Shown: positions 425 to 17,915, counted from the first letter of the stretch. The stretch: DNA of 18,036 nt from Fastidiosibacter lacustris (GCF_003428155.1 NZ_QLIR01000027.1:1-18036); one strand, 5' to 3'. Notes: generated from the letters alone by a model not told the origin. Numbers and translations are program-made.

Positions 425-650
425 TAGCTTTCTTTTGAGTTTTGAAATATCCAAGGATGGTAATGAATTAGATATCCATTGTGATGATAATGGTCTAGAA
501 AAATTACTCTCACTTCTTTCCTTGCTCAAAGGCAAAGCGCAACATGAGCATTTAATGACGCCTAGTTGGGGGGGGGGGTATGAGCTTTCTGAAGAACCTC
601 AATCAGAAGGTAGTCAGCTGCTGCATAAAGTTACCATCCATAAATGGTAG
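414..650 (+). CDS. Small acidic immunity-like protein (78 aa), translationally coupled to the upstream toxin-like ORF
   Basis: ATG 414 overlaps the upstream stop (TGA 422-424). The product is small and acidic (ELDIHCDDNGLEKLL ... HLMTPSWGGGYELSEE). Position and size fit a cognate immunity gene. Confidence 0.4.
   Translation: MTTDSFLLSFEISKDGNELDIHCDDNGLEKLLSLLSLLKGKAQHEHLMTPSWGGGYELSEEPQSEGSQLLHKVTIHKW
568..578 (+). repeat. G11 homopolymer inside the immunity-like ORF
   Basis: Direct count gives ggg at 568-570 plus gggggggg at 571-578. The tract encodes W-G-G-G in frame. It is very atypical for this AT-rich sequence. Confidence 0.95.
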
Positions 651-772
651 ATGCGCGTGACGGGATCAGATCTCAAATTTGCAAGCAAACTGATGTTGAT
701 TATTTGTTGTAATCATAATGCGATTCCTTTGCTTTTTTGGTTAAACATGACAAGTTAAAAATATTAACTCAT

Positions 773-1075
773 CTAAGCATGTTTAGAAAAAATCATCTCA
801 TATGACTTTTCAGCTGAGGTATTCTCTTTTAATAAATCGTTAATCTTAATTTCTAAATAATTCGTTATCGCTAATAATATTAATATGGTAGGATTACATT
901 TGCCATTGATAATCTTACTGACTGTTCCCGTTGATATACCCAGTTCTTTACTTAACTCAACACTATTAACGTTATTTTGATACATGTAGATTTTAAGGTT
1001 TGTGCGAATGAGGTTTAATATCTGGGGATAGGCATCTATTTCAGTAATGTTTAAATAATTGATTTCCTTATTCAT
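773..1075 (-). CDS. XRE-family helix-turn-helix transcriptional regulator (100 aa)
   Basis: Classic HTH_3 core: NSVELSKELGISTGTVSKIINGKCNPTILILLAITNYLEIKINDLL. An AAGGA lies upstream of the ATG on the minus strand. The gene diverges from the NRPS leader region. Confidence 0.8.
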   Translation of the reverse strand: MNKEINYLNITEIDAYPQILNLIRTNLKIYMYQNNVNSVELSKELGISTGTVSKIINGKCNPTILILLAITNYLEIKINDLLKENTSAEKSYEMIFSKHA

Positions 1076-1416
1076 GATGGCTTAATTTCCTTTATTCATC
1101 AATAAGTAGATCTTAGTTAAATAGGAGCATTTATACAACAAAAGTTGTTGAAATAAAATAACATGATTGATATTATTAATTTTGAGTCATTATTAAGAGC
1201 CCCCCGATTTCTTAATCGCAACCTTCATCCCCCCGACGAAATAAGGAATTACTTAACTAGCAAGGAAATGACTCAATTAATCACTTCTCTCTAAAAACTC
1301 TTCCAAATAGAAGAGAATCGCCATATTACCCGAGTTTAAATATAATGCAACTGATTTTTATTCATCAAATTGATGTTTTTTGTACTTTGAAACGGATTGA
1401 ATACATCAAATAAAAC

Positions 1417-1431
1417 TACTTGTTACAAGTA
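1417..1431. promoter_or_regulatory. 15-bp perfect palindrome TACTTGT-T-ACAAGTA, candidate operator next to a possible promoter
   Basis: Read directly. It sits just upstream of TTGAGC (1435-1440) and TATTAT (1460-1465), a -35/-10-like pair with a long 19-bp spacer, about 70 bp before the strong SD at 1491-1498. Function is not demonstrated. Confidence 0.25.
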
Positions 1432-1503
1432 ATGTTGAGCTTCTGATCTTATTTTGCTCTATTATATACATAAAATTTATACTCAAAAATGGGAGGGATA
1501 GAA

Positions 1504-1566
1504 ATGACTCTTAAATTAACAAAGCAACAGGAAGAATTTATTAAACAAAATAAATTTAATCATTAG
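1504..1566 (+). CDS. Candidate 20-aa upstream ORF (MTLKLTKQQEEFIKQNKFNH)
   Basis: It is not in the ORF track because it is too short. The strongest Shine-Dalgarno in the region (GGGAGGGA, 1491-1498) lies 5 nt before the ATG. The ORF ends 29 nt before the NRPS start codon. Confidence 0.25.
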   Translation: MTLKLTKQQEEFIKQNKFNH

Positions 1567-1595
1567 CCTAAGCTTAAAATGGGGTTGTATTAATC

Positions 1596-2195
1596 ATGCA
1601 AATTAATGTTATCGTTATTGGGGATACTGGTGTTTGTCTTGAATGCTGTAAATTAATCTTTAAGTCACAAGCTTATAACCTTATTGCTGTTATCAGCGAT
1701 GATCAAGCTGTACTAAACTGGTGTTGTCAAAATAGAATCGAAACACTGACTTATCAAGCGTATCAAAATAGCCAATATCGAGATTATTTGTTATTCAGCA
1801 TTATCAATCAACGCATTATCCCTGCTCAAATAATCAAAAAACATCAGATAAGACTTGCAATTAACTACCATGATTCTCTATTACCTGCTTATGCAGGCAT
1901 CAACAGTACTACCTGGACCATCCTTAATAACGAGAAAAAACATGGGGTGACTTGGCACAAAATGATTGATGGGATTGATGAAGGGGATATTATTCAGCAG
2001 GCTTCAGTAGCGATTACGCCAAAGGACACTGCACATAGCCTTAACTTGAAATGCACAAAAAAAGCAATTGAATTATTTAAAGCTTTATTAACTAATTTAG
2101 AAAATAATACATTAAGCGTTCAATCTCAAGATCTAAGCAAGAAAAGTTATTATGGCTTAGATTATCTCCCACAAAACTATGGATTCATTAATGAT
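1596..2195 (+). other. Formyltransferase (F) domain of the NRPS-like protein
   Basis: Asn90/His92 in INYHDSLLP (His codon 1869-1871) and Asp in IDGIDEGD match the N-H-D catalytic arrangement of methionyl-tRNA formyltransferase-type domains. Confidence 0.75.
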
Positions 2196-5100
2196 TGCAC
2201 AAGCTTAGAGGATATCCATCGATATTGTCGAGCACTTTATTTTGGCGATGATTACCCAAATCAAATCACATCGGTAAAAATACAGCTTGAAAACACCGTT
2301 TATCTATTAGATATGCCCACGTTTGCAAATATACCACACCCTTTAAGTGATATAACAGGACTCTATATTGTTTCAGGTGAAAAAGCTCTGCACTTCCCAA
2401 CTATAAGAAATGCCTATGGTATTAAGATAAACTTAAACAAAATTGTGTCAATAAACGAACTAATATCACATAAAATCATAGTCAATGATAATGACTGGAA
2501 TAAGTTAAAAGCAATTAAAAAAAATGAAAAAAAACAGTTTAATCACGCTTTAAGGCTCAGTGAGAAGGCAAATTCTATCATTAGTAAAGCAATCACAAAT
2601 GATGAATCAGCTAAATTCAGTTACTCTATTGACGTTGATGAACTAAACACTCAAGAAGCTATTTCTGCTATTTCATTGGTTTTATTGCGATTATTTCAAC
2701 AAGACGAGTTTTTAATTCATTTTTATTCAGGTGACTCTAGACTTAATCATTTATCCCATTTAATTGACAGTAAATGTTTTATTGAATTTAACCAAAAGCA
2801 ACTTGAGCTTCAACTAGGAGATTTTGCAAACTACATTGACGAAAATTCAAACAAAAAACATTTACTAACCAAAGACTTTTATTATCGATACCACTGCATA
2901 AATCTGCTTACTGATGTTGGGATTTATTATAATGGTAGTTTTACTGATAGCATTACGCCACACAGATTAAACTTTATTCTTTATGATGAAAAAATAGAGA
3001 TCATTAGCCATGACACTGACAAGCTTGAAATCAATGCGATTGTATCTTCATTACAAGTTGTCATTAGCGAATATCACTATCACTTAAAACAAAATACTCC
3101 GCTCAATGACATTAGCTTACTATCGAAAGAAGAGTATCAAAAAATCATTATTGACTGGAACAAAACCGATAAACCCTATCCGAAAGATAAAACCATTTAT
3201 CAGTTATTTCAAGAACAAGTCGAAAAGACACCTGATCATATTGCCGTGGTATTTGCAGGTCAACAACTAACGTATGCTGAGCTCAATGCTAAAGCGAACC
3301 AACTGGCAAGATATTTACGATTACTAACTGATATTCAACCCGATACTTTGATTGCTTTATGCTTAGATAAAAGCTTAGAAATAATTATTGGAGTTTTGGG
3401 TATTTTAAAATCAGGGGCGGCTTATGTACCGATTGACCCTAGCTATCCTGATGAAAGGATTAGATACATACTTGACGATACTCAAGTATCTTTATTGTTA
3501 TCCCAATCACATTATGTCTCAAGACTAAAATCTATTTCAAAGGCAAACATTATTTCATTAGATAATTATTGCTATCAAGGCTTACCAATCGATAATTTAA
3601 AACCTATAAACACATCAAATGATTTGGCTTATATTATTTATACATCTGGAACGACTGGAATGCCTAAAGGTGTTTGCATAATGCACAAAAGTTTGTGTAA
3701 TATGGCATTTTCACAACAGGAAAATTTAAATATCAATGAAAGCTCAAGAATTCTGCAATTTGCATCGATTGGTTTCGATGCCTCGGTATGGGAAATTTTT
3801 GGTGCTTTAAGTTTTGGTTCTCAACTTCATGTTATGCAGGATAAAATTAAATTACACAAAGACACTCTAGAAAAATATATTGCTTTAAATGAAATTGATA
3901 TCATAGCATCAACACCTTATAATTTAGTAACTATGACACCTTCTAATGTCAAATCATTACGGTGTTTAATTTCTGAAGGGGAGGCTTGTACTACTCATAT
4001 TTTAAATAAGTGGGGAAACATATTAATTAACTCATATGGAACAACAGAAAACACTATTTGCATGACGCTGTATAGTTTTAAAAAAGGAGATTTACCAAAT
4101 AATATTGGTAAACCTTTAGGAAATATAAAAGTTTATGTCACCGATCCTTATGCAAATAATATGCCCATAGGAATTATTGGTGAGTTATGTATAAGTGGTA
4201 TAATATTAGCTCAGAAATATTTGAATCAACCTAGAATTACTGCTGAAAAGTTTATTGCTAATCCTTTTGCGAGTGAAGAAGACAAACAAAAAGGCTATGA
4301 TCGGTTATATAAAACAGGCGATTTAGTCAGATGGCTGCCTGATGGTAATTTAGAGTACATTGGACGCAAAGATACTCAGGTTAAAATCCGCGGATTTAGA
4401 ATTGAACTGGGTGAAATTGAAAATGCTGTAACAACTATTGAAGGCATTGACCAAGCAGTTGTCATTAATAGATCCGTTAACGACGAGCAATATCTCTTTG
4501 CTTATTACACTGCACATCATCCCATTACCCCTGAATTAATAGTAGAACAACTTGCTAACAAGTTGCCACATTACATGGTGCCCAGTGCTGCCTTGCAAAT
4601 CAATGAAATACCGTTAACTATTAATGGCAAGGTTAATATAAAGGTCTTACCTGATATTCCTTTCCAAAGTGCTCAAATTTATATTGAGCCAAGGACTGAA
4701 CAGGAAAGACTTGTTTGTCAGGCTTTCTCTACGGTATTACTGATTGAAAAAATAGGCATTGATGATGATTTCTTTAGACTAGGTGGTAATTCTATTAAGG
4801 CAATTCAACTATCAATGGTCTTACAATCAAATCTTGAGATTGATGTCGCTGAAATATTTGATTTACGCACACCCAGAAAGCTTGCCTATAATAAACGTAT
4901 TACACATGATTTATTGATTGCTAAATTAGCACAAATTAAACAGTATTATACTCAGCATCATAACAAACCACTAAATTCCGCTGCATTGCTTAAAAAAGAG
5001 CAATATTTGGCAGAAGTTGCCCATATGCCGATAATACATTACACAAACAAACCAATTAAAACGGTATTATTGACTGGCGTCACTGGTTTTCTAGGGTGCA

Positions 5101-6395
5101 ATCTGTTACACCAGTTACTGACTTTAACATCCTATCAAATTTACCTTTGTATTAGAGCTAAAGATGAAGTGCATGCAAGCGAACGTATGGCACATAAATA
5201 TCAATTTTATTTTGACGTGTCTCTGGAAGATCATTTTAGTGATCGTATTATTTACATTGCTTGTGATTTAGAAAAAGAGCAGATTGGATTAGCAGATAGT
5301 GAATATCATCAACTGATTAAAAATATAGATAGCATTATTCATTGTGCTGCTTTAGCAAAACACTACGGGATTGAACAGGTATTTTATAATGCTAATGTAC
5401 AAGCAACAATTCATTTGCTTGAACTTTGTCAACTGACCAACTTGAAAGATTTTCATTATATATCGACTTACTCTGTGATGACAGGGATTGTCAATGAGAA
5501 TGAAACTATTCTAACTGAGGATGATCAGTTAACGATTGATGGTGAATGGAACTCTCCATATACTAAAACTAAATACCTCGGTGAAATCAATGCAATTAAA
5601 TGGCGTGAAAAAGGCATTAACAGCAGTGTGTATCGTGTTGGGAACTTAGCCTTTATGCAGCACAATGGCAAGGTACAGGAAGATGTTAAAGATAATGCCT
5701 TTGCAACCTATATTGCTTTTATTCGTAAGTTAGGTTGTATTGCTGATAATATGAATGAAGTAGAGATTTCACCTGCTGACATGACAGCAAAAGCGATTGT
5801 TAAACTATTTGATAAACATCAGTTAAACAATCGGACACATCATGTATTTAATCCCCATAAAATCGATTTATCTAAAATGCTGAGTACGAAAAACCATACC
5901 ACCCAAGTGATAACTTTTGAATTGTTTATTGATAGGTTAATCAATTATTTACAATACAACGATGATTGTTCTTTAATTGGAAGGTTTTTATTACGCATGG
6001 GATGGCAAGCTGATACAAAAAAGAGTCATTTCAACATAAGTAGCGGTACCACTATTTTACAAAGCAAGACGGAATCGATGTTTAAAATGATGAATTTTGA
6101 ATGGCCTATGATTAATGACAAACAGTTAACAGCTTACGTTGATAGGTTAGCCAGTACTTTTGATGGGATTGTAGAAACACCTATAACTGCTCCTAAATAT
6201 TTCAGGCTAAAACAGTGGTGGATAAGGTTTGATAAGTTGACAAATAGCGCAAAAATAAAAATGATGAGGCTTTTCAAAGCACATAAAAAAGCCATTTCCA
6301 TTGTTGGTGCGTTATTGTTTATGGCGCCATTATTTTATGTCTTAGAACTTTTAGATATGATTACTATGCTGGAATTTTTGAATGCTCCTGTTTAA
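1596..6395 (+). CDS. Single-module NRPS-like enzyme: formyltransferase - relic condensation lobe - adenylation - thiolation - thioester reductase - C-terminal hydrophobic tail (1599 aa)
   Basis: N-terminal Fmt-like motifs are INYHDSLLPAYAG and IDGIDEGDII. A-domain core motifs are LTYAELNAKANQLARYL, LKSGAAYVPIDPSYP, YIIYTSGTTGMPKGV, FDASVWE, NSYGTTE, GELCISG, YKTGDLVRW, GRKDTQVKIRGFRIELGEIE and NGKV. The T motif is FFRLGGNSIKAIQL. R-domain motifs are LLTGVTGFLG and YTKTK (YxxxK). Confidence 0.9.
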   Translation: MQINVIVIGDTGVCLECCKLIFKSQAYNLIAVISDDQAVLNWCCQNRIETLTYQAYQNSQYRDYLLFSIINQRIIPAQIIKKHQIRLAINYHDSLLPAYAGINSTTWTILNNEKKHGVTWHKMIDGIDEGDIIQQASVAITPKDTAHSLNLKCTKKAIELFKALLTNLENNTLSVQSQDLSKKSYYGLDYLPQNYGFINDCTSLEDIHRYCRALYFGDDYPNQITSVKIQLENTVYLLDMPTFANIPHPLSDITGLYIVSGEKALHFPTIRNAYGIKINLNKIVSINELISHKIIVNDNDWNKLKAIKKNEKKQFNHALRLSEKANSIISKAITNDESAKFSYSIDVDELNTQEAISAISLVLLRLFQQDEFLIHFYSGDSRLNHLSHLIDSKCFIEFNQKQLELQLGDFANYIDENSNKKHLLTKDFYYRYHCINLLTDVGIYYNGSFTDSITPHRLNFILYDEKIEIISHDTDKLEINAIVSSLQVVISEYHYHLKQNTPLNDISLLSKEEYQKIIIDWNKTDKPYPKDKTIYQLFQEQVEKTPDHIAVVFAGQQLTYAELNAKANQLARYLRLLTDIQPDTLIALCLDKSLEIIIGVLGILKSGAAYVPIDPSYPDERIRYILDDTQVSLLLSQSHYVSRLKSISKANIISLDNYCYQGLPIDNLKPINTSNDLAYIIYTSGTTGMPKGVCIMHKSLCNMAFSQQENLNINESSRILQFASIGFDASVWEIFGALSFGSQLHVMQDKIKLHKDTLEKYIALNEIDIIASTPYNLVTMTPSNVKSLRCLISEGEACTTHILNKWGNILINSYGTTENTICMTLYSFKKGDLPNNIGKPLGNIKVYVTDPYANNMPIGIIGELCISGIILAQKYLNQPRITAEKFIANPFASEEDKQKGYDRLYKTGDLVRWLPDGNLEYIGRKDTQVKIRGFRIELGEIENAVTTIEGIDQAVVINRSVNDEQYLFAYYTAHHPITPELIVEQLANKLPHYMVPSAALQINEIPLTINGKVNIKVLPDIPFQSAQIYIEPRTEQERLVCQAFSTVLLIEKIGIDDDFFRLGGNSIKAIQLSMVLQSNLEIDVAEIFDLRTPRKLAYNKRITHDLLIAKLAQIKQYYTQHHNKPLNSAALLKKEQYLAEVAHMPIIHYTNKPIKTVLLTGVTGFLGCNLLHQLLTLTSYQIYLCIRAKDEVHASERMAHKYQFYFDVSLEDHFSDRIIYIACDLEKEQIGLADSEYHQLIKNIDSIIHCAALAKHYGIEQVFYNANVQATIHLLELCQLTNLKDFHYISTYSVMTGIVNENETILTEDDQLTIDGEWNSPYTKTKYLGEINAIKWREKGINSSVYRVGNLAFMQHNGKVQEDVKDNAFATYIAFIRKLGCIADNMNEVEISPADMTAKAIVKLFDKHQLNNRTHHVFNPHKIDLSKMLSTKNHTTQVITFELFIDRLINYLQYNDDCSLIGRFLLRMGWQADTKKSHFNISSGTTILQSKTESMFKMMNFEWPMINDKQLTAYVDRLASTFDGIVETPITAPKYFRLKQWWIRFDKLTNSAKIKMMRLFKAHKKAISIVGALLFMAPLFYVLELLDMITMLEFLNAPV
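2613..3186 (+). other. Possible relic C-terminal lobe of a condensation domain (no HHxxxDG seen)
   Basis: TQEAISAISLVLLRLFQQDEFLIHFYSGDSRLN resembles the post-C4 segment of C domains. LSKEEYQKIIIDWNKTDKPYPKDKTIYQLFQEQVEKTPDHIAVV is a typical C-to-A linker. No His-motif is visible upstream. Confidence 0.35.
3198..4655 (+). other. Adenylation (A) domain
   Basis: Motifs A1-A10 are listed under the CDS entry. Specificity-pocket residues read by hand alignment to GrsA-PheA are D728 A729 W732 A771 I792 E794 S813 I821 C822 K1012. Confidence 0.9.
4683..4910 (+). other. Thiolation / peptidyl carrier (T) domain
   Basis: LGGNS motif. The predicted phosphopantetheinyl Ser1066 codon is at 4791-4793. Confidence 0.85.
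5058..6171 (+). other. Terminal thioester reductase (R) domain, SDR fold
   Basis: Rossmann motif TGVTGFLG, IIHCAALA, and catalytic Y1322-x3-K1326 (YTKTK, Tyr codon 5559-5561). The position directly after the T domain is as in terminal NRPS/CAR reductases. Confidence 0.85.
6291..6356 (+). other. Predicted C-terminal transmembrane / tail-anchor helix of the NRPS-like protein
   Basis: AISIVGALLFMAPLFYVLELL is about 21 mostly hydrophobic residues, preceded by a basic stretch (KMMRLFKAHKK), 12 aa from the C terminus. Confidence 0.5.
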
Positions 6396-6423
6396 ACATT
6401 TAAATTAGAATTAAGGATTGGAG

Positions 6424-7647
6424 ATGCGCCTAACAAGCAAAAAAGATTTAACTTCATCGTTTGATGAATTTTCAGAAATTGTTCCTGGTGGTTTTTATTG
6501 GTTTGATTTAAATCATAAATTAATGGCAATAAATTCATTTGCTCTAAAAACTGGTAATGCAAAACTTAGCGATGTTATAGGTAAAACTCCGATAGAAATG
6601 CACCCAAAAGAAATGGCAGATGAAATCATCTCAAACCATAAGCAAGTAATTAAGACAGGCAAACAATTACACTGTCAAGAAAGAATACAGGATTTTAAAA
6701 CTGGAAACACTGTTTTTTTTGATGTTGTACTTTCACCATTATTCGATGAAAATAACGAAATATTTGGTGTTTGTGGTATTTCAACTGACATCACCGAACG
6801 CAAGCGCCTTGAAGAAGAAACCATCCGCCAGAAAAACCAACTTGAGAAAAAATTAGAATATCAAAAGAACTATCTTAAAGCTTATGGGTATGATTACGTG
6901 GACGCACTTAAAAAAATTTCTGATGCCCTTGAAAATATTGAAAAACGACTAATGAAGTTGGATATACCAACTGGGGTACGCAGTCAACTTAATGATGAGT
7001 TTTATACAATAAACGAAAGTTTGTCCGATATATATTCTCTGTATCAAAAAATCAACACATCAATATTAGATCAAGAACACAATAATGATGAAGTAGAAAA
7101 AAATGAGATGCCTCTTAACTTGGAAGATTTAGTTGAAACAGAAGTCAATTTAGCCAATTCATCTATTAGTGCTGAATTTGATCTGAATGTCTCCTTTGAA
7201 ATCGACGAAAAATCAAGACAAAAGCTTTATATCGATTATAAAAAAGTTCGTCACATTATCCGTACTTTATTTGCGAACTACACTAAAGCAATCAATAAGG
7301 AAGGTAGGAAAAAAGACATTCAGTTAACTATTACTGCTGAAGAGGGTATACGAGATAAATTGTATGTTACTTTTGAATTTGATGGCAATATGCCATTTCT
7401 AGAATTAGAAAATGATAATATCAGAGCAGAGCATCTTGTATATCAATCTCAAACCCATATTGCTAGCGATAAACATAACTTTGCTTATGATCTTTCCTTA
7501 GCGAAGTATTATGCTGACTTGCTCTGTGATGGTGAAGAATTGAATGATTCCTTATTTGAAGGTTCAAGGTTCTCATTCACTTTGCCATTTCGCAAAGCGA
7601 CTAACGATGGCAAAGAAAAAAAGTTTAAGCCAACGCTTGTGGAATGA
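6424..7647 (+). CDS. PAS-domain protein with degenerate HisKA/HATPase-like core (pseudo-histidine kinase)
   Basis: The PAS region ends in ISTDITERKRLEEE, followed by a coiled coil. At the H-box position it reads YLKAYGYDYVDALKKI, with no His. N-box-like FANYTKA and the tail GSRFSFTLPF are retained, but G1 (FEFDGNMPF) and G2 (YDLSLAKYY) are degenerate. I chose ATG 6424 over the tracked TTG 6418 because AAGGA at 6413-6417 lies 6 nt upstream of it. Confidence 0.7.
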   Translation: MRLTSKKDLTSSFDEFSEIVPGGFYWFDLNHKLMAINSFALKTGNAKLSDVIGKTPIEMHPKEMADEIISNHKQVIKTGKQLHCQERIQDFKTGNTVFFDVVLSPLFDENNEIFGVCGISTDITERKRLEEETIRQKNQLEKKLEYQKNYLKAYGYDYVDALKKISDALENIEKRLMKLDIPTGVRSQLNDEFYTINESLSDIYSLYQKINTSILDQEHNNDEVEKNEMPLNLEDLVETEVNLANSSISAEFDLNVSFEIDEKSRQKLYIDYKKVRHIIRTLFANYTKAINKEGRKKDIQLTITAEEGIRDKLYVTFEFDGNMPFLELENDNIRAEHLVYQSQTHIASDKHNFAYDLSLAKYYADLLCDGEELNDSLFEGSRFSFTLPFRKATNDGKEKKFKPTLVE

Positions 7648-7805
7648 TAGTTTGTTAAGTCTCCGTTTAGAGTATACCTTAACTTGATGTCAGGCAATAT
7701 CAATATACCTGTCAGATTTAAGTTGGTATTTATTTTAGTTGACAGTTTAAATGCAACCTCTTAGGCTCTAAACTGGCAATGTTTAACAAAAAATATATAA
7801 TTCAT

Positions 7806-7824
7806 CAGCGAAACTCAGTGAGTT
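7806..7824 (+). repeat. Copy A of an exact 19-bp direct repeat CAGCGAAACTCAGTGAGTT (contains palindrome AACTCA-G-TGAGTT)
   Basis: Read directly. It is identical to 9888-9906, and the flanks diverge immediately on both sides. Confidence 0.95.
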
Positions 7825-8074
7825 GAATTTTATGAGCAAATAATCAATTGCTATCAATTTGAGCCTAATAGAACTGTAAAAATATTCAAAACTGAGCTTG
7901 CTAATAGTGATTTAAACTGTTTATTTGTTTGTTTTTAGATCAGATATTTTGTACGGATGTGTAAAGTCATCCCAAACCATATGAGATGTTTAGCTGCTTA
8001 AAGATTAAATGATTTGTGGAGGAGAGTATTCATTTTGCCTTAAATGAAAGCACAGCATATGCTCCCAACTATCA

Positions 8075-8116
8075 ATTGACATCCTCCCCTCCCTAAAGGA
8101 AGGGGAGGATGTCAAT
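8075..8116. repeat. GC-rich perfect hairpin (16-bp stem ATTGACATCCTCCCCT / AGGGGAGGATGTCAAT, 10-nt loop)
   Basis: Read directly. It lies about 30 bp upstream of where the SHMT-like reading frame opens (8146). No U-tract follows on either strand. Confidence 0.9.
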
Positions 8117-8145
8117 AGGTCTCATTATCGGTCGTCAACTTGTAA

Positions 8146-8748
8146 ATCGGCGTTGATATTATTCATGGCAGTACTCATAAAACATTTCCAGGACATCAAA
8201 AGGCAATTATCGCCTTTCATTCTGATTTTCATCAAGATGATGAGGATAAAATTAGGCATAGCGTTTCGCCAGGATTGCAATCAAAATCAGGTACAGCGGA
8301 AATGATGGCATTAGCTTATGTCTTTTGTGAAATGAAAGTACATGCTGTGGCTTATGCTAAAAGTGTGTGTGAGCATGCACAAATTATGGCAAAACATTTG
8401 ATTGAACAGAGGGTTGATGTTTCAGGTCATCGATTTAACTATACCCAAACACATCAGGTACGGTTACCAATGAAATCAGAACGCTATACATGGGATGTCT
8501 TTGCTCAATTACATCAGGTAGGCATTCGTGTCTTACCAGCGTGGTTGCCTTTTGAAAGTAGCTGGGGCGTTCGATTGGGAACAAATGCACTGACAAGACG
8601 AGGATTTGTAGCAGAAGACTTTTTAACAACTGTTGATTGGATTACCTGCGTTATTAAAAATAAAACAAATATTAAAAACATAAGAAAGGAAGTGGATGCG
8701 CTTGCAAATAAGTATCCTCTGACACAATTGAAATATACGCTGATATAA
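8146..8748 (+). pseudogene. 5'-truncated serine hydroxymethyltransferase-like (fold-type I PLP) gene fragment
   Basis: The frame is open from 8146, upstream of the tracked TTG at 8275. GVDIIHGSTHKTFPG matches the SHMT PLP-lysine motif (THKT). SPGLQSKSGTAEMMALA and GVRLGTNALTRRGF match the FPGxQGGP and GIRIGTPAxTTRG regions. The roughly 200 N-terminal residues are absent. Confidence 0.6.
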
Positions 8749-8807: not shown

Positions 8808-9850
8808 ATGCATAATATTCAATATGATTTATTTAGTGATACCAATGTGAATCCCTATTATGCTATGCGTCAGATGATGAGTCGAGCAAAAGTTGGTAAT
8901 GAGGCAGCAGGGGAAGATCCAACCGTGAATTTACTTTTGGCACGGGTTTGTGAGTTACTGGGAAAGCCGGCGGCCGTTTTTATGCCAACCGGAACTATGT
9001 GTAGTGGTGTTGCTTATCGGGCTCTCTGTCAACCTGGAGAGAGAATTATTATTGAAAAAACTGCGCATCCATTGAAAATATGGCATCGGGGATGATTGGT
9101 GGGCTAGTTGGTGCTCAGCCACAGATCATTGAAGGAGTACGGGGAATATTCAATGTTGATCAGTTAAAACAGGCTGTGGGTCTTAATAGCGGATATAATA
9201 TTGCTAAAGCAACGGTTGTTTCAATAGAGCAGACAACAAACCTTGGTGGTGGTGCCGTTTGGTCATTGGAAACTATTAATAACATCTGCGAATATACACA
9301 TCATCATGGGCTTAAAGTACATATGGATGGTTCAAGACTTTTAAATGCGTGTATAGCAACAGGCATTAAAGCCAGTAGCTACTGTGAACATGTTGATTCA
9401 GTATCGATTGATTTTGCTAAAGGTCTGGGTGCCCCGATGGGCTCGGTTCTTGCCGGAAGTCAAGCATTTATTGATAAAGCTTGGTTTTATAAATTCCAGC
9501 AAGGCGGTGTTATGCATCAGGCAGGATTTATGGCTGCTGCCTGTATCTATGCGCTTGATCATAATATTCAACGATTGAGTCAGGATCATGCCAATGCCAG
9601 TTATTTTGCAGAGCGCTTATCTCAGCATCATGACATAGAGGTTATGACTGTCGAAACCAACATTGTTATTTTCACCCTAAACAGGCGAGACTCTTTTGAT
9701 GCGTATCAACTGCATCAAATACTTCTGCAAAAAGGTATCAGACTTTTAGCCTTAAATGATCGACAATTAAGGGCAATTTTTCACATGGATATACAAACTA
9801 AAAGTATCGATAAAATTATTAAAATCATTATCGGAGTATTACCAACATAA
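8808..9850 (+). pseudogene. Low-specificity threonine aldolase-like (Beta_elim_lyase family) gene with one frameshift
   Basis: Two ORFs (8808-9095 and 9080-9850) together give a full-length aldolase: DLFSDTN, VGNEAAGEDPTVN, GKPAAVFMPTGTM, TAHPL | ASGMIGGL, and PLP-lysine SIDFAKGLGAP. The frame switches near 9072-9082 at an A4 tract. This could be a true mutation or a sequencing error. Confidence 0.75.
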
Positions 9851-11652: not shown

Positions 11653-12279
11653 ATGTTAGTTGGTTATATTCGTGTTTCTAAATCAGATGGTAGTCAGGTC
11701 TTAGATTTACAGAAAGACGCCCTATACAAAGCTGGTGTGGAAGTGGACTACATGTATGAAGATCTTGCCTCTGGGCGCAAAGATGATCGCCCAGGCTTAA
11801 TCGCTTGTTTAAAAGCTTTACAGCCAGGCAACACACTTGTCGTTTGGAAGCTTGATAGACTTGGTCGCGACATGAAACACTTAATAAGTGTAATTGATGA
11901 TTTAAATCATAAGAAAATTGGGTTTAAAGTGCTAGCAGGTGCTGGTGCTGAAATTGATACGACAACGGCAAATGGACGTCTAGTATTTGGCATTTTTGCA
12001 GCCTTAGCAGAATTTGAACGTGAACTAATCAGAGAGAGAACTCAAGCAGGACTGGCTGCTGCAAGAGCCCGAGGTAGAAAAGGCGGGCGTCCTCGTAAGA
12101 TGGATATTCAAACTTTAAAAATGGCAATGTCCGCTATGTCTGATCGAAACTCAATTGCACATGAAATTGCCAAACGCCTAGGAATTACAACTACAACACT
12201 TTACGCCTATGTTAATGGTGATGGAACACCTAAAGAACTGGGTAGTAAATTGCTGAATAAAGTAGACTCTAATGGCTAA
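11653..12279 (+). CDS. Serine recombinase (resolvase/invertase family)
   Basis: N-terminal catalytic motif MLVGYIRVSKSDGSQ (Ser9), DRLGRD, and GRLVFGIFAALAEFERELIRERT. The C-terminal HTH is IAKRLGITTTTLYAYV. The stop overlaps the next ATG (12272). Confidence 0.9.
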   Translation: MLVGYIRVSKSDGSQVLDLQKDALYKAGVEVDYMYEDLASGRKDDRPGLIACLKALQPGNTLVVWKLDRLGRDMKHLISVIDDLNHKKIGFKVLAGAGAEIDTTTANGRLVFGIFAALAEFERELIRERTQAGLAAARARGRKGGRPRKMDIQTLKMAMSAMSDRNSIAHEIAKRLGITTTTLYAYVNGDGTPKELGSKLLNKVDSNG

Positions 12280-13903
12280 ATCACTTCCCACTGAGCAATT
12301 AATCATCTTGCATAATAAAATGTCTATGTACGCAGCAAGAGATCCAAAAAGAAAGCAGTTGGTATGTGATTTTGCTAATAGCTTTGGGGTGTCTGAAAGC
12401 ACTGTTCGACGTCAATTGCGTGAACATATTCATTTTTCAAAGGTTTCTCGACTAGATAAAAACACACCAAGAGTTATTTCTAAGTCAGACATGTTGCTTT
12501 ATTGCAGAGTTATTGCTGCTTTAAAGCTTCGCACATCAAACAAGAAAAATAAACATTTATCAACTCAGCAGTGCATCAAGATTCTTGAAAATTATGGTGT
12601 TGAAACAGCTGAAGGATTCGTAATATCATCAAAAGGACTTTTAAAGAAAACAACCATAAATAGATATTTGAAAAACTGGGGGTATGATCCAACTTCTATG
12701 AAAGTTGAACCAGCAGTGGTTAGGTTTGAAGCCGAAAATAGTAATGACTGTTGGCAATTTGATTTTACGCCTTCAGACTTAAAGAAAATTTCTGCTAATA
12801 GCTCTAAAAAGCTATTCATTGCTAATGTTACTGATGATAAAAGTGGTATGTTGTATTATGAGTACGTTGAATCAGACGGTGAAGACGTGCTTACCGCATT
12901 GAAATTTTTATTTAATGCAATGTCTGCAAAGAAAATAGAAGGTATGCCATTTCAAGGGATCCCCAAAATGATCTATACGGATAATGGTGCTTTTGCAAAA
13001 AGCGCATTGTTTAAACGTGTTCTAGATGCCTTGGGAATTCAACTAAAGAAACACTTACCAAAAAATAAGGATGGGCGACGAACAACTGCCCGAGCAAAAG
13101 GAAAGGTTGAAAGGACAAATCGCACGATAAAAGAATCCTTTGAGCCTTTATTCCATTTACATCAACCAGAAAGCCTTGAGCAAGCCAATTTATGGGCGAC
13201 GAATTATTTGCGTCAATATAATCAGTCATCACATCGATCTGAGGATTGTAGCCGAATAAAAGCATGGTCAAAATTTTTACCCGCTGAAGGTTATAGAGAA
13301 ATGTGCTCTTGGGAAAAGTTTTGTCAAATTGTGCGCGATCCTGAATTAAGACGAGTTGCTTCAGATGGTTGCGTTAGTGTTAATGGTGTCAAATACCAAT
13401 TATCAACTGAGATGGCTGGATTAGAAGTAACTTTGCTACATGGCATGTTTGACAATGAGCTTCATGTTGAGTTTAACAGTGAAACACATGGACCTTTTTA
13501 CCCATTTTCCGGTCCAATTCCCTTACATACCTATAGGTCACCTCCTAAGAGCAAAAGAGAAAAGACAGCAGATGAAATAGCTAGCTTAGCTGAAACGCTT
13601 TCTGTACCAATATCTGTTATGTCTAACAGTAAAGATGATAGCATCCTCAAAAGCCTAGAAGCTTCACATGTTACTGATTGCCAAATTACATCAATACCAT
13701 TTAGAGAAGATAAGAAAACAACTTTTCAAAACAGATTAGAGGCAAAAAAAGCAATTGCTAAATATTTGAATAGACCATTGGCAGAATTAAGAGATGAGCA
13801 ATTAGATCATATTAATATGTTAGTTCAGGAGTCTCTAAATAAAGAGTTTTTACTCTCGAAAGTAAAGCAATATTTTTCTTTGTCAATTGCACAGCTTGAA
13901 TGA
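12272..13903 (+). CDS. Mu/TniA/TnsB-type DDE transposase (rve integrase core, 543 aa)
   Basis: DDE triad candidates are D164 (CWQFDFTP, codon 12761-12763), D237 (MIYTDNGAFAKS, 12980-12982) and E280 (KGKVERTNRTIKE, 13109-13111). There is an N-terminal HTH-like region and a Mu-transposase-like C-terminal beta region (VSVNGVKYQL). Confidence 0.85.
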   Translation: MAKSLPTEQLIILHNKMSMYAARDPKRKQLVCDFANSFGVSESTVRRQLREHIHFSKVSRLDKNTPRVISKSDMLLYCRVIAALKLRTSNKKNKHLSTQQCIKILENYGVETAEGFVISSKGLLKKTTINRYLKNWGYDPTSMKVEPAVVRFEAENSNDCWQFDFTPSDLKKISANSSKKLFIANVTDDKSGMLYYEYVESDGEDVLTALKFLFNAMSAKKIEGMPFQGIPKMIYTDNGAFAKSALFKRVLDALGIQLKKHLPKNKDGRRTTARAKGKVERTNRTIKESFEPLFHLHQPESLEQANLWATNYLRQYNQSSHRSEDCSRIKAWSKFLPAEGYREMCSWEKFCQIVRDPELRRVASDGCVSVNGVKYQLSTEMAGLEVTLLHGMFDNELHVEFNSETHGPFYPFSGPIPLHTYRSPPKSKREKTADEIASLAETLSVPISVMSNSKDDSILKSLEASHVTDCQITSIPFREDKKTTFQNRLEAKKAIAKYLNRPLAELRDEQLDHINMLVQESLNKEFLLSKVKQYFSLSIAQLE

Positions 13904-13920
13904 TATATAAGGAGATTGAA

Positions 13921-14895
13921 ATGTATATTGAAGCAAATGAATTTTATGGGTTTGTTAAATTCTTTAATGATGCTGGTTACTATGAAACGCAAGCCCATAA
14001 AAGGATTTATAATGATATCACCGCACATATTCAATCTGGTGGGATATATGCATTAACTGGTTCAGTTGGCGCAGGTAAAACAAAGTTACTTAATAAAATC
14101 CAAAGCGATTTAGATAGTAAAAAACAAATTATCGTATCAAGATCTTTGACGACAGAAAAAAAATCTTTAACCATAAAAACACTGCTTGTGGCACTCTTTT
14201 ATGACCTCCTCAAAGGAGAAAAGGTTATCAAAATACCATCGGTTAGTGAAAAACGCGAGCGTGAGTTGATTGACCTTATAAAAAAGCACAACAAACCTGT
14301 CGCCTTATTGATTGACGAAGCTCATGATATACATGGTTTAACCTTACTTGGTCTTAAAAGACTTGTTGAAACAACCGCCTCACAAGGTTACAGACTGTCT
14401 ATTATTATGGCAGGTCATCCGAAGCTTGGTAACGCACTTTCAACAGCAGCGATGGAGGAAATAGGTGCGCGAACCAAAATATTTAACATTGATGATGCTA
14501 TTGGCGATAAAGAAAAATATATTATCTGGCTACTTAAAGAGTGCTTAGATCCGAAGAAAAAATACCAAGAAATTATTTCTCCAGAAGCTATTCAGAAGCT
14601 TGCAAGCTCATTACAAACACCTCTGCAAATTCAACATTATCTTACTCAGGCAATACAGTCGGGGCATCAATTAGGTGAAAAAATAATTACCCCAGAGTTG
14701 ATTGAACAAACATTAAGTTTCGATCTAAATTCATTAGAAGCTCAACTTGCACGAAAGGGTTATCAACTAAAAGATACCTGTGAGATGCTAAATGCAACAG
14801 CTAAGGAAGTGCAAGATTACTTACAGGGTAAGTCTAACTCCCCACGGAAAAATGAGTTTATCCAGAAATTGCGCAGTATTGGAATTTCAATATAG
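13921..14895 (+). CDS. TniB/ExeA-like AAA+ ATPase (transposition accessory protein)
   Basis: Walker A is LTGSVGAGKTKLL and Walker B is ALLIDEAHD. I chose ATG 13921 because AAGGAG (13909-13914) lies 6 nt upstream. The tracked alternative ATG 13900 overlaps the transposase stop. Confidence 0.8.
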   Translation: MYIEANEFYGFVKFFNDAGYYETQAHKRIYNDITAHIQSGGIYALTGSVGAGKTKLLNKIQSDLDSKKQIIVSRSLTTEKKSLTIKTLLVALFYDLLKGEKVIKIPSVSEKRERELIDLIKKHNKPVALLIDEAHDIHGLTLLGLKRLVETTASQGYRLSIIMAGHPKLGNALSTAAMEEIGARTKIFNIDDAIGDKEKYIIWLLKECLDPKKKYQEIISPEAIQKLASSLQTPLQIQHYLTQAIQSGHQLGEKIITPELIEQTLSFDLNSLEAQLARKGYQLKDTCEMLNATAKEVQDYLQGKSNSPRKNEFIQKLRSIGISI

Positions 14896-14904
14896 GTCAT
14901 TGAT

Positions 14905-15975
14905 ATGAACACTCTTACTACTCAAGAATTACCGGAATACACCACATTCCTCAAACAAGCAACAACTGAGATACATAAGTCATATATACGGACAGTGAGA
15001 TCAGTGAATAAAGAAGTAACTTCCCTTTATTGGTGGCTAGGCGAGCACATTGTTCAATATCAAGATCAATACGGGTGGGGCAAGTCGGTTGTTGAACGTC
15101 TATCCAAAGACTTGAAACAGAAATTTCCAAGCGCAAAATTTGGTTTTTCACCGCAAAACTTATGGTATATGAGGCAATTTTATCTTGAATATAACGGCAA
15201 ACCAGAACTCCAACAGCTTGTTGGAGAAATTCCATGGGGGCAAAATTTGCTCATCATGAGCAAGGTAAAAGAGGATAACAAAAAGCTGTATTATCTTCAG
15301 TCAACTAAAGATTTTGCTTGGACGCGTGATACACTACGTGACCAAATAAACTCAAATGCATATGAGCGGCATTACTTGGCAACTAAACATCATAATTTTG
15401 ACAGTACGCTCCCAAAGATGCTTGCAGAGCAGGCAGATCAATCTATGAAAGACGTTTACATGTTTGACATGTTGGGCATTGCTGAACCAGTTATTGAAAC
15501 TGAAATTGAGCGCCGTATGGTTGAAAAAATTAAAGATGTAATCATGGAATTAGGCTATGGGTTTAGCTTTATTGGCAATCAATATCGTATTGTAACGCCT
15601 GATTCAGAATATTTTATTGATCTATTGTTTTACCACAGAAAACTACAGGCCTTAGTAGCTTTGGAGCTAAAAAGGACTCGCTTTAAACCAGAGCATGCAG
15701 GCAAAATGAATTTTTACTTAAACCTTTTGGATGAGTTCGTTAAAGAGCCTAATGAAAATCCATCTATCGGCATTATTTTATGTGGCGAACACAGTAAATT
15801 TGACGTTGAATATGCTTTAAGAGGGATCGATAAACCGGTTGGTGTTGCAGGGTATCAGTTGACCCGTGATATACCTGAAAAACTAAGGGATGCTTTGCCT
15901 GATGCGACTCAATTAGAAGAAAAAATTCAGTTTGAGCTTGGTTTGAATCAAGATAAATCAGATGATAAACAATAA
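14905..15975 (+). CDS. DUF1016/YhcG-family protein with C-terminal PD-(D/E)xK nuclease motif
   Basis: The N-terminal region (VNKEVTSLYWWLGEHIV, SPQNLWYMRQFYLEY, IPWGQNLLIM) is typical of YhcG. The nuclease motif is intact: FIDLLFYHRKLQALVALELKRT (D ... E-x-K, about 15611-15675). Only 9 bp separate it from the ATPase stop. Confidence 0.8.
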   Translation: MNTLTTQELPEYTTFLKQATTEIHKSYIRTVRSVNKEVTSLYWWLGEHIVQYQDQYGWGKSVVERLSKDLKQKFPSAKFGFSPQNLWYMRQFYLEYNGKPELQQLVGEIPWGQNLLIMSKVKEDNKKLYYLQSTKDFAWTRDTLRDQINSNAYERHYLATKHHNFDSTLPKMLAEQADQSMKDVYMFDMLGIAEPVIETEIERRMVEKIKDVIMELGYGFSFIGNQYRIVTPDSEYFIDLLFYHRKLQALVALELKRTRFKPEHAGKMNFYLNLLDEFVKEPNENPSIGIILCGEHSKFDVEYALRGIDKPVGVAGYQLTRDIPEKLRDALPDATQLEEKIQFELGLNQDKSDDKQ

Positions 15976-16673
15976 AGTAAAGAGAACGCTTCCCGCTTCT
16001 ATCCTACGCCCATTTAAAGCGGACTGGGAAAAGACCAATTTATGCATAAATTTGGATAGTACGCGCACAAATGAATTGCTTCAATCAGTTTTGCCCAAAG
16101 ATCAACTTAAATCATATCATATCATATTATCCAAGGAGGCTGCGCTAATCTTAACCTCAAGTTGAAGTTAAATGATGAACGTATGAAACTTTTGCGTATT
16201 TATATTCGTGATCATCAAGCATCTTATCGAGAACATGCGATTGCCCAGCTAATACATAAAACCATTCCAGTTCCAATCATAGAAACAATTGGGACTAGCA
16301 AAGGACTAAAGTTTGCTTTATGCGAGTTTATGTCAGCTATAACCCTACGTGAACTATTACTCAGCAATCAAATATGATCTTGAAGCCATTATGTATCAGG
16401 TTGGTAAAGCACTTACAAACATTCAAAAAATCACCTTTCAAGTTTCAGGATTCTTTGATCAACAGCTTAAGATAATTGCATCTACTGCTGATAATGAATG
16501 TATCAAACTTGCCAGACGAGCATTAGAACACAAAACAGCAAAAATAGTGCTTTCTGAAGAGCTTATTTCAAGAATTACTCAATTGCTTTACAAGTACGAT
16601 AATTTAATCCAAAAAATCAATGGCGTGCAATTGGTGCACGGTGATTTTGGACCGGAAAATATTTTGGTAAATA

Positions 16674-17684
16674 ACGTGAGTTCGATATAAAAGATTGAAA
16701 TTTATTCATAAAAGAGATTCTAATCGGGTTGCTTGAGATCGCCTTAAATGCTATATCTAAAGCCCCAAAACACAAACAACCCTAATGGCTATGCTAGAGA
16801 CTATTTTTTGTTTTGTCGATGATTTTTGTGAAGAGTTTATCCCTGTATGGCAACAGCATTTGATTGAACATGCTCAGAAAAAACGAGAAAGACAAGGTAT
16901 GATGGCGTGGAGCGAGGTTATGACTATCATGATACTATTCCACCAGAGTCATTATCGTAATTTGAAGCACTTTTATTTGGATTATGTATGCACCCATATG
17001 AAAGATGCTTTCCCACGCACAGTAAGTTACAACCGCTTTGTTGAGTTACAAAAATCGGTATTGGTACCACTATGTTTTATGCTTCACCTGCTTAAGGGAG
17101 ATAAAACGGGAATTTATTTTATTGACTCGACACCCATCAAAGTTAGCCATATTAAGCGTGAGAAGCAACACAAAGTTTTTGATGGATTGGCTAAGAAATC
17201 AAAGTCTACAACAGGTTGGTTTTTTGGATTTAAGTTGCATCTAATTGTTAACGATAAAGGGGAAATCATAGCTTTTAAAGTGACTGCAGCGACAATAGAT
17301 GACCGTGTACCTGTTGAGGATTTAACCCGTGGGCTTATTGGCAAATTGGTTGGTGATAAATGGTATATCAAAAAGGCATTGTCGGAGCTCTTATTTGAAC
17401 GGGGGTTGCAACTGATTACACGAGTTAAAAAGAAAATGAAAAGTGGATTGGTTTCATTGATAGATAAAGCACTTTTAAGAAAACGCGCAATTATTGAGTC
17501 AGTGAATGATCAGCTTAAGAATATCAGTCAAATTGAGCACACAAGACATCGTTCGATTTGGAATTTCATGACAAATTTGCTGTGTGGTTTAGTTGCATAC
17601 TATTTTCAACCAAAAAAGCCAAGTTTACGTACTAAGCAGAACCGTGAGTTGATGGCATTGTGATCAATTATATCGAACTCACGT
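16674..17684 (+). mobile_element. IS982-family insertion sequence (1011 bp) with 16-17 bp terminal inverted repeats and a 6-bp target-site duplication
   Basis: The left IR ACGTGAGTTCGATATA (16674-16689) is the exact reverse complement of the right IR TATATCGAACTCACGT (17669-17684). TAAATA is duplicated at 16668-16673 and 17685-17690. Removing the IS plus one TSD copy restores the APH frame (ENILVNKVSNQW). Confidence 0.85.
16785..17663 (+). CDS. IS982-family DDE transposase (292 aa, apparently intact)
   Basis: LETIFCFVDDFCEEF at the N terminus, IDSTPIKV, GFKLHLIVNDKGEI, LVGDKWYI and ESVNDQLKNISQIEHTRHRS are characteristic of IS982-group transposases. Confidence 0.9.
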   Translation: MAMLETIFCFVDDFCEEFIPVWQQHLIEHAQKKRERQGMMAWSEVMTIMILFHQSHYRNLKHFYLDYVCTHMKDAFPRTVSYNRFVELQKSVLVPLCFMLHLLKGDKTGIYFIDSTPIKVSHIKREKQHKVFDGLAKKSKSTTGWFFGFKLHLIVNDKGEIIAFKVTAATIDDRVPVEDLTRGLIGKLVGDKWYIKKALSELLFERGLQLITRVKKKMKSGLVSLIDKALLRKRAIIESVNDQLKNISQIEHTRHRSIWNFMTNLLCGLVAYYFQPKKPSLRTKQNRELMAL

Positions 17685-17915
17685 TAAATAAGGTGAGTAA
17701 TCAATGGAAAGTTAGCGCAATACTGGATTGGGAGTTTGCATTTTCAGGTTCAATGTTATGGGATGTTGCAAACATGCTGCGCTATGCACATCAAGTACCA
17801 GCTAATTTTGAAAAAGCTTTCATCTCAGGGCTGGTACAGTCAGGTATTACATTACCTAAAGTATATAAGTTTAGACTTGACCTGACAGTTGCCTATTTTT
17901 CAAACGTGGTTTTTG

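Follow-up and report, generated by a model that had tools for sequence, protein, structure and literature searches.

In the synthesis of linear gramicidin, the formyltransferase (F) domain of LgrA formylates the carrier-bound first amino acid from N10-formyl-tetrahydrofolate (reviewed in PMC10510592). In Legionella, the so-called Cluster C encodes a nonribosomal peptide synthetase (NRPS) that consists of one module and should, by prediction, produce an N-formylated amino acid, which its C-terminal reductase (Red) domain was predicted to turn into an aldehyde or alcohol, possibly cyclised to an oxazoline (Tobias et al., PeerJ 2016, PMC5126622). Similar clusters ending in a thioesterase (TE) were noted, as were regulators nearby, and a signalling role was suggested; Legionella drancourtii LLAP12 was among the genomes analysed (PMC5126622). 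In molluscs such as Mytilus edulis (accession CAG2199366.1) and C. virginica, the enzyme FmtATR, which has the module order formyltransferase–adenylation–thiolation–reductase (Fmt-A-T-R), belongs to the bursatellin/oxazinin (bur-ox) pathway; with NADPH, its T-R didomain, the one part that was assayed, converts N-formyl-L-tyrosyl-CoA or -SNAC (the N-acetylcysteamine thioester) into N-formyl-L-tyrosinol in a four-electron reduction, and its closest non-mollusc homologues are bacterial according to the authors (Venugopalan and Schmidt, JACS 2025, PMC11869996). Here, we analyse a bacterial gene of this kind, which lies at positions 1596–6395 (+) of an 18,036-bp stretch of DNA (the window), a complete contig of Fastidiosibacter lacustris (Thiotrichales, Fastidiosibacteraceae), and encodes a synthetase with the domain order F-C*-A-T-R, where C* denotes a remnant of a condensation domain. 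Seven proteins encoded next to it match RefSeq proteins of F. lacustris with full identity, and an exact look-up of the synthetase sequence itself returned no record.

The synthetase gene forms an uninterrupted frame of 1599 codons in DNA of ~33% G+C. Judged from the base composition of the region, the probability of so many consecutive sense codons arising by chance is P ~1e-55, and no other open reading frame (ORF) of at least 80 amino acids (aa) overlaps the gene on either strand. We consider it likely that this is a functional, self-contained one-module nonribosomal synthetase of F. lacustris. It is an uncharacterised further member of an already described design, distinguished by a pseudokinase partner, a hydrophobic tail and the specificity code DAWAIESICK. 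An initial annotation of the same DNA had read the gene as a stand-alone enzyme making an N-formyl amino aldehyde or alcohol. That anatomy and that product class are right, the latter as the most reasonable reading of the gene, and the single-module status stands as well.

Domain anatomy and proposed chemistry

All five parts lie in one polypeptide in the order F-C*-A-T-R, and no active condensation domain is among them (Table 1). Residue invariance was assessed in an alignment of the synthetase with 12 full-length relatives that are 27–66% identical; every catalytic motif is present, and the catalytic residues named below are invariant throughout this alignment.

At the N-terminus, Pfam recognises Formyl_trans_N over residues 73–160 (E 1e-19), and the ~370 residues between the Pfam matches to the F and A domains carry no family assignment. 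In an AlphaFold model of residues 1–535 built on the family alignment (pLDDT 86.6, pTM 0.82), the first ~300 residues superpose over ~296–309 columns on complete two-subdomain formyltransferases, among them the N-terminal domain of ArnA (2bln) and Fmt (3tqq), each with E 1e-18. Nearest in sequence are the sugar N-formyltransferases 7n7a and WbkC (E 1e-16), followed by ArnA (1e-13). The catalytic N/H/D positions noted initially are in place: N90, H92 and D128 form the formyltransferase triad, align with the N-x-H and D of WbkC and do not vary among the relatives.

The bracketed C* of the initial annotation proved to be real. Residues ~343–545 align with the half of NRPS condensation domains that follows the HHxxxDG motif (hhalign probability 98.7%, E 5e-16), covering columns 273–505 of 518 in templates that are genuine condensation domains from multimodular relatives. 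In those templates HHxxxDG sits at positions 142–183, upstream of the aligned part, and the motif is absent from residues 1–545 of the synthetase. A separate AlphaFold model of residues 296–540 (pLDDT 84, pTM 0.83), searched with Foldseek against the PDB, retrieved only condensation-family domains of the C, Cy, E and X types, including McyB C1, LgrA C, TycB C, Txo1 C, EpoB Cy and EntF C (TM 0.55–0.62; E 6e-8 to 1e-4, the best being 8hlk with E 6e-8). The Pfam Condensation profile finds nothing meaningful on the C* region of the synthetase itself; in the homologue P0036 it matches the same region over profile positions 187–362 of 456 with 29 bits. Because the profile–profile alignment, the fold search and the missing His motif agree, C* is the C-terminal lobe of a condensation domain that lacks the catalytic lobe. 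It is catalytically dead, and its role is most likely confined to preserving the C-A platform that carries F.

The adenylation domain is complete, as had been claimed. AMP-binding matches residues 538–876 (E 5e-76) and AMP-binding_C residues 940–1012 in Pfam, and the NCBIfam model TIGR01733 (AA-adenyl-dom) scores 415 bits against a cut-off of 317 bits. The core motifs read YTSGTTGMPKG, FDAS, GELCISG, YKTGD, LPHYMVP and NGK, D728 (A4 Asp) and K1012 (A10 Lys) are invariant, and the best solved relatives are LgrA, TycA and GrsA-PheA. The carrier domain that follows is matched by PP-binding over residues 1039–1097 (E 3e-9), with an invariant S1066 in LGGNS. Extracted against GrsA numbering, the specificity code DAWAIESICK equals the GrsA-Phe code DAWTIAAICK at 7 of 10 positions; since A278, E301 and S322 replace the GrsA-Phe residues at the other three, the bottom of the pocket should be roomier and more polar. 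Read with low confidence, the code points to an aromatic substrate resembling Phe that may carry a para substituent, as Tyr or an amino-Phe does; this presumed assignment to Phe or Tyr draws on published codes.

The terminal reductase is recognised by NAD_binding_4 over residues 1159–1401 (E 4e-45), so that the profile searches proposed for checking the F and R domains find both. T1160-G1161-x-x-G1164-x-x-G1167, read as TGVTGFLG, as well as S1290/T1291, Y1322 and K1326 are invariant; the GxxGxxG and YxxxK motifs are therefore intact, as initially described. A non-reductive R* domain (Dieckmann cyclase) was considered and rejected because Tyr1322 and Lys1326, on which true reductases depend, are retained. 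Closest among solved R domains, all from reductive releasers, are 6vtj (7e-29), that of AusA (1e-28) and that of MxaA (3e-24). AusA R yields an aldehyde and MxaA an alcohol. Behind the R domain follows an extension of ~70 aa (6186–6392), which in the alignment is common only to the closest homologue, P0001. It contains the most hydrophobic 19-residue window of the whole protein, residues 1567–1585, and to judge by its composition this tail may tether the C-terminus of the protein to the membrane, an uncommon trait if it holds for an NRPS.

In the mechanism we propose, the A domain would adenylate one amino acid, by its code perhaps a Phe-like aromatic one bearing a polar substituent, and load it on the phosphopantetheine at S1066. 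The F domain, through N90/H92/D128, would then take a formyl group from N10-formyl-tetrahydrofolate and attach it to the tethered aminoacyl thioester at its alpha-amine, and the R domain (Y1322/K1326) with NAD(P)H would release an N-formyl amino aldehyde after one hydride step or an N-formyl amino alcohol after two. The analysis itself establishes the order of the domains, their intact motifs and folds, the synteny and the size of the family. We infer the chemistry of these steps, the substrate, the depth of reduction and a biological role as a signal or host-directed molecule from the gene and its relatives; the mechanism is supported in that the Cluster C prediction, the reduction by FmtATR and the formylation by LgrA give precedent for its steps.

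Several observations weigh against this reading. The A5 motif is YGTTE rather than YGPTE, and, to our knowledge, DAWAIESICK equals no published code, so that the substrate is a guess. TIGR01746 scores 177.4 bits over residues 1156–1520, below its cut-off of 213.35; the match spans profile positions 1–367 of 371, and we count the domain as a divergent R domain because its motifs and solved relatives agree. Whether an aldehyde or an alcohol is released cannot be read from the sequence, and the depth of reduction cannot be called since the nearest solved R domains include both aldehyde and alcohol formers. The F domain of LgrA matches that of the synthetase with E 3e-6 and is thus more distant than the sugar formyltransferases. 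No gene for a phosphopantetheinyl transferase or an exporter lies in the 18-kb window, and a literature search of limited coverage found no published product of a bacterial member. Finally, full-length FmtATR could not be reconstituted (PMC11869996), and formylation by such modules has been demonstrated only for LgrA.

Distribution of the architecture

When one genome per species was scanned for relatives of the F+C* cassette, 573 stretches turned up, and the 80 best loci were classified with our own domain profiles. The best match of the scan, whose set did not contain the F. lacustris genome, is 51% identical; the closest homologue overall is P0001 with 66% amino-acid identity, a level at which synonymous sites are saturated. 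Many of the 80 best loci belong to Legionellales, Coxiellaceae, Francisellaceae, Rickettsiales, Chlamydiae and metagenome-assembled genomes (MAGs) of Holosporales, and others to cyanobacteria, Bacteroidota, Acidobacteriota (Pyrinomonadaceae) and Chloroflexota (Anaerolineales, Ardenticatenaceae). Single-module F-C*-A-T-R genes are found at seven of them, L001, L002, L009, L049, L062 (L. drancourtii LLAP12), L067 and L069. Relatives of this kind occur in other Fastidiosibacteraceae (Caedibacter, Cysteiniphilum), in Legionellaceae including L. drancourtii and in further MAGs. Multimodular lines among the 80 also open with the F+C* cassette, and some of these end in R.

Run exhaustively with HMMER against 1.84 billion cluster representatives, the F+C* profile picked out the cassette in 1,832 of them at E<=1e-30. 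Among the 150 best representatives, 26 are single-module F-(C*)-A-T-R proteins, ~1500–1600 aa long apart from one outlier of 1990 aa. A separate word-index search with the same profile yielded 17 proteins, mostly truncated, with no mollusc sequence among them. These counts of representatives make the architecture a populated family and not a singleton, and the suggestion in the initial annotation that it was unrecognised as a characterised one fails, since Cluster C (2016), the partly characterised FmtATR (2025) and the size of this family speak against it. In spirit, then, a partly characterised enzyme of the same architecture does exist, with the mollusc enzyme likened to ours by its description only.

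The cassette has been joined with many substrates, as the varying codes of the relatives indicate. We take DAWTIAAVCK and DAWTCAAVCK to be Phe-like, DASTIAAVCK, the code of P0006 and L049, to be Tyr-like and DAFWLGGTFK and DALWLGGTFK to be Val-like, and DAWQFGLIDK, found in Legionella proteins of ~1400 aa with the order F-C*-A-T, is presumably Gln-like. P0002 (Caedibacter; L001 9889–14472) and P0004 (Cysteiniphilum; L002 9983–14596) are 86–98% identical over residues 1–650, which comprise F, C* and the first part of A, whereas the cores of their A domains share 25–39% identity and carry the codes DAWTCAAVCK (Phe-like) and DAFWLGGTFK (Val-like), respectively. To judge by these sequences, this looks like natural replacement of the A domain within a conserved scaffold, and it would mark where F-C*...T-R scaffolds tolerate recombination.

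Many Legionella species carry such F-C*-A-T proteins of ~1400–1450 aa (L029, L030, L034, L037, L041, L042, L044, L055, L056, L071 and L077), the C-terminal tail of which lies outside our own profiles; a thioesterase domain (PF00975) is present in proteins of similar size that the homologue search returned. Their code is DAWQFGLIDK or a one-residue variant, a PAS hybrid kinase usually lies downstream, and the predicted product is N-formyl-glutamine. These proteins match Clusters G and I of Tobias et al. (2016, PMC5126622).

Partner genes, genomic setting and possible roles

The synthetase gene is one of three that are conserved together as a unit, the others being a divergent helix-turn-helix (HTH) gene upstream and a PAS-domain gene downstream. 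Homologues of the HTH gene lie upstream on the opposite strand in L001 (55% identity) and L002 (47%), and L081 has an HTH_26 gene there; homologues of the PAS gene occupy the same position in L081 (62% identity), L001 (56%) and L002 (47%). At the P0001 locus, on a TARA marine metagenome scaffold, the synthetase gene lies between a divergent HTH gene and the gene of a PAS protein of ~406 aa, and the order HTH–synthetase–PAS recurs in the Caedibacter MAG (L001) and in Cysteiniphilum (L002). Because this arrangement is kept in L081, L001 and L002, we regard both genes as intact conserved partners. The PAS gene begins 22 nt past the synthetase stop, and the two are probably co-transcribed. A promoter scan of positions 600–8400 gave 41 sites where 41.2 were expected and was thus uninformative, and terminator-like sites numbered 5 against 2.8 expected. 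An ORF at 1505–1567 (MTLKLTKQQEEFIKQNKFNH, 20–25 codons), preceded by GGGAGGG (region 1491–1567) and lying ~30 nt before the synthetase start, was considered as a leader peptide and rejected since it is not conserved in L081, L001 and L002.

The PAS neighbour is named ‘PAS domain-containing sensor histidine kinase’ by NCBI (WP_116964749). Pfam detects only PAS domains in it, the PAS domain occupying residues ~15–135, and its C-terminal half aligns with the DHp and CA domains of HK853. Within this half, the H-box His is replaced by Tyr (AYGYDYVDAL versus NMSHDIRTPL in partners that are kinases), the G1 box DTGIGIP has become DGNMPFL and the G2 box GHGVGLH has become NFAYDLS, the N-box Asn being retained. 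The phospho-acceptor His is also lost in the partners in L001, L002 and L081, as are the G1 and G2 boxes. Despite its annotation as a sensor kinase, the neighbour is, by these motifs, a pseudokinase.

We modelled the PAS subtype on the neighbour gene and surveyed the 52 F-initiated NRPS loci with enough downstream DNA. In 28 of the 52, a gene of this subtype is on the same strand as the NRPS gene and starts no further than 1.5 kb downstream of it, and ~601 kb of upstream flanks contain only 15 hits. Among the single-module R-terminated loci, six of seven have a downstream PAS gene; L067 has none downstream and two upstream. Most PAS partners are genuine or hybrid sensor kinases, whatever the termination domain of the NRPS.

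Table 1. Features of the 18,036-bp F. lacustris window, with positions counted from its first nucleotide.
Feature	Position	Strand	Basis or remarks
F-C*-A-T-R synthetase gene, whole, 1599 aa	1596..6395	+	intact ORF, ATG start
F: two-subdomain N-formyltransferase domain, aa 1–~295, catalytic N90/H92/D128	1596..2480	+	Pfam, model superposition
C*: remnant of condensation-domain C-terminal lobe, aa ~296–530, no HHxxxDG	2481..3185	+	hhalign, fold search
A: adenylation domain, aa ~531–1020, code DAWAIESICK	3186..4655	+	Pfam, TIGR01733
T: carrier (peptidyl carrier protein, PCP) domain, aa ~1030–1100, phosphopantetheine site S1066 in GGNS	4683..4895	+	PP-binding
R: NAD(P)H thioester reductase, aa ~1150–1530, TGVTGFLG, S1290/T1291-Y1322-K1326	5043..6185	+	NAD_binding_4, TIGR01746
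Hydrophobic C-terminal segment, aa 1567–1585, ISIVGALLFMAPLFYVLEL	6294..6350	+	Kyte-Doolittle mean 2.1
XRE/Cro-type HTH regulator gene, 100 aa, divergent from synthetase	773..1075	-	Pfam HTH_26 E 5e-9, HTH_3
PAS-domain pseudo-histidine-kinase gene	6418..7647	+	Pfam PAS_4 E 1e-12; NCBI start 6424, 407 aa
Serine hydroxymethyltransferase-like (SHMT) gene, C-terminal fragment	8275–8748
Beta-eliminating lyase (threonine aldolase type), two overlapping ORFs	8808–9095 and 9080–9850
IS6-family transposase, 203 aa	9881–10492
Co-oriented block: serine resolvase, DDE (rve) transposase, AAA_22 ATPase, YhcG/DUF1016 PDDEXK nuclease	11653–15975
APH-family phosphotransferase gene split by IS982	16349–16690 and 17660–17929		APH profile 93–183 and 184–228
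Intact IS982 transposase gene inside APH gene	16785–17663

The initial annotation had taken the intactness of the gene among pseudogenes and insertion sequence (IS) elements as a sign of selection. From ~1.9 kb downstream onwards the genes are indeed decayed or mobile, but both immediate neighbours are intact and syntenic, so this argument stands in part. In the downstream DNA, the broken beta-eliminating lyase is either a frameshift pseudogene or a sequencing error, and the co-oriented block resembles a Tn5053/Tn7-like transposition module. Searched by megablast against plasmids, the window as a whole had no match, which leaves the status of a known plasmid unsupported. F. lacustris was isolated from a lake and is free-living; its genome measures 2.07 Mb, with 36.3% G+C, 129 predicted pseudogenes and 25 IS copies, and its average nucleotide identity (ANI) to ‘Ca. 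Nebulobacter yamunensis’ (JAMBMW000000000), an obligate endosymbiont of Euplotes, exceeds 95% (PMC9837558). The possibility of a decaying endosymbiont genome was accordingly rejected, the organism being free-living and moderately pseudogenised (PMC9837558).

Two proposals concern the role of the product, and the one on signalling is compatible with the functional synthetase described above. In it, which we put forward tentatively and think rather unlikely, the synthetase and the PAS protein would be a signal synthase–receptor pair, with a diffusible N-formyl product sensed by PAS; in Fastidiosibacter, output would run through the pseudokinase and the divergent HTH regulator instead of through phosphotransfer. 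The downstream and upstream counts of the PAS subtype, the many partners that are genuine or hybrid sensor kinases and the synteny of the HTH and PAS genes in the closest relatives all speak for such a pair, and Tobias et al. proposed signalling because regulators cluster with these NRPS genes (PMC5126622). The association is positional only, however, and a sensor kinase could regulate the NRPS gene on another cue; PAS domains bind many ligands, the kinase core in F. lacustris is degenerate (His to Tyr, G1 and G2 lost), and the pairing is independent of NRPS type, occurring with one to several modules and with R and non-R termination, which argues against a single shared ligand. We find it distinctly less likely that the product is a host-directed effector, namely a cell-permeable N-acyl amino aldehyde that would inhibit cysteine or serine proteases such as the phagolysosomal cathepsins of protists. 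NRPS R-domain peptide aldehydes of gut bacteria inhibit cathepsins, and the aldehyde-forming AusA R is among the nearest solved R domains. The F+C* relatives are concentrated in protist- or host-associated lineages, a setting to which the >95% ANI with the Euplotes endosymbiont also points (PMC9837558). This case is purely circumstantial, however: the taxonomic skew may be due to the descent of the cassette and not to what it does, inhibition by a single formyl-amino aldehyde should be weak, and FmtATR, alike in architecture, reduces fully to the alcohol (PMC11869996).

The other two alternatives would alter the reading of the enzyme itself. If the F domain were inactive or used another acceptor, the synthetase would be an ordinary A-T-R enzyme releasing a free amino aldehyde, from which pyrazines or dihydropyrazines would form by dimerisation. 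The greater closeness of F to sugar N-formyltransferases than to the F domain of LgrA, the restriction of the Pfam match to residues 73–160 and the fact that formylation was not reconstituted for FmtATR (PMC11869996) fit this view, which we nevertheless judge very unlikely: N90, H92 and D128 are invariant among relatives only 27–66% identical, the F+C* cassette is N-terminal in >1,000 NRPSs and the full fold is predicted confidently, and such conservation would be hard to explain for a dead domain. Least probable of all is a non-functional relic on a contig rich in mobile elements, kept intact by recent acquisition or silencing. The SHMT fragment, the frameshifted lyase, the IS6 and IS982 transposases, the Tn-like module and the split APH gene on the contig, together with the 129 predicted pseudogenes of the genome (PMC9837558) and the G+C content of the gene (31–34%, below the genome mean of 36.3%), might suggest as much. 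Yet a stop-free frame of 1599 codons with its minute chance probability, the retention of all catalytic residues and two intact partner genes syntenic across relatives 47–62% identical are difficult to reconcile with decay. A functional F-C*-A-T-R synthetase therefore remains our preferred reading.

Beyond this locus, one may speculate, with considerable reservation, that F-initiated NRPS genes and downstream PAS sensor-kinase genes constitute an undescribed synthase–receptor family of protist- and host-associated bacteria (Legionellales, Fastidiosibacteraceae/Francisellaceae and others). If so, its signals would be N-formylated amino aldehydes, alcohols or short formyl-peptides, and the Fastidiosibacter unit would be a derived version with a perhaps membrane-tethered synthase and a pseudokinase receptor acting with the XRE-type regulator. 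Independently of any signalling, the bacterial family could be the source from which molluscs acquired their bursatellin enzyme FmtATR. The significance of the single gene is modest, and its chemistry is predictable; the pairing of NRPS and PAS kinase genes offers a testable lead to a possible new signalling system, and F. lacustris is tractable for work on product and role because it is culturable, growing on BCYE with cysteine, and has a very close twin in the Euplotes endosymbiont. For making N-protected amino aldehydes and alcohols by biocatalysis, the one-module design also offers a compact tool, a point made in the mollusc study too (PMC11869996).

Comparison with described systems

With the carboxylic acid reductases and other A-T-R and C-A-T-R enzymes (AusA, MxaA, Lys2, 6vtj), the synthetase shares a thioester reductase of the short-chain dehydrogenase/reductase (SDR) type with TGxxGxxG and S/T-Y-K, and, by prediction, the release of an aldehyde or alcohol; these enzymes differ in having no formyltransferase domain. 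The free-amine aldehydes of A-T-R enzymes cyclise or dimerise to pyrazinones or pyrazines, which a formylated amine cannot do.

LgrA resembles the synthetase in its N-terminal F domain and is the best solved structure for the A-T part (E 1e-230), and the gramicidin line likewise terminates in R, on LgrD. In LgrA, however, F has 193 residues (PMC10510592) and A follows directly, LgrA residue ~200 corresponding to synthetase residue ~527; with an F domain of ~295 aa and a C* of ~235 aa, the F. lacustris enzyme is not of this compact type. LgrA also belongs to a line of 16 modules and hands on what it makes to a condensation domain, whereas the F. lacustris module ends in R. For C*, a parallel exists in the ACV (aminoadipyl-cysteinyl-valine) synthetases, which have a smaller condensation-related C* just before the first A domain of the initiation module; theirs stands at the extreme N-terminus and is required for activity (Iacovelli et al. 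2021, PMC7884236), while that of the synthetase is sandwiched between F and A and has a putative role.

By its published description, FmtATR has the same module order and the same predicted formylate-then-reduce logic; its substrate is aromatic (Tyr), and the code of the F. lacustris enzyme is Phe-like. It differs in being an animal gene with introns, and it clusters with genes for an aminocarboxypropyl transferase, a P450 and flavin-containing monooxygenases (FMOs), none of which occurs on the 18-kb F. lacustris contig.

Legionella Cluster C, a prediction only, is a bacterial F-A-T-Red enzyme of one module for which the products predicted are the same; regulators lie nearby, and a signalling role was proposed. 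L062 of L. drancourtii LLAP12 (1568 aa) matches our F, C*, A, T and R profiles in that order, with Pfam in agreement, and has a PAS kinase gene downstream; it differs by its Val-like code DAFWLGGTFK, by a Formyl_trans_C subdomain detectable with Pfam and by a partner that is a real PAS histidine kinase. The F. lacustris enzyme stands apart from Cluster C in that its code is Phe-like, its PAS partner is a pseudokinase and its C-terminus extends into a hydrophobic tail.

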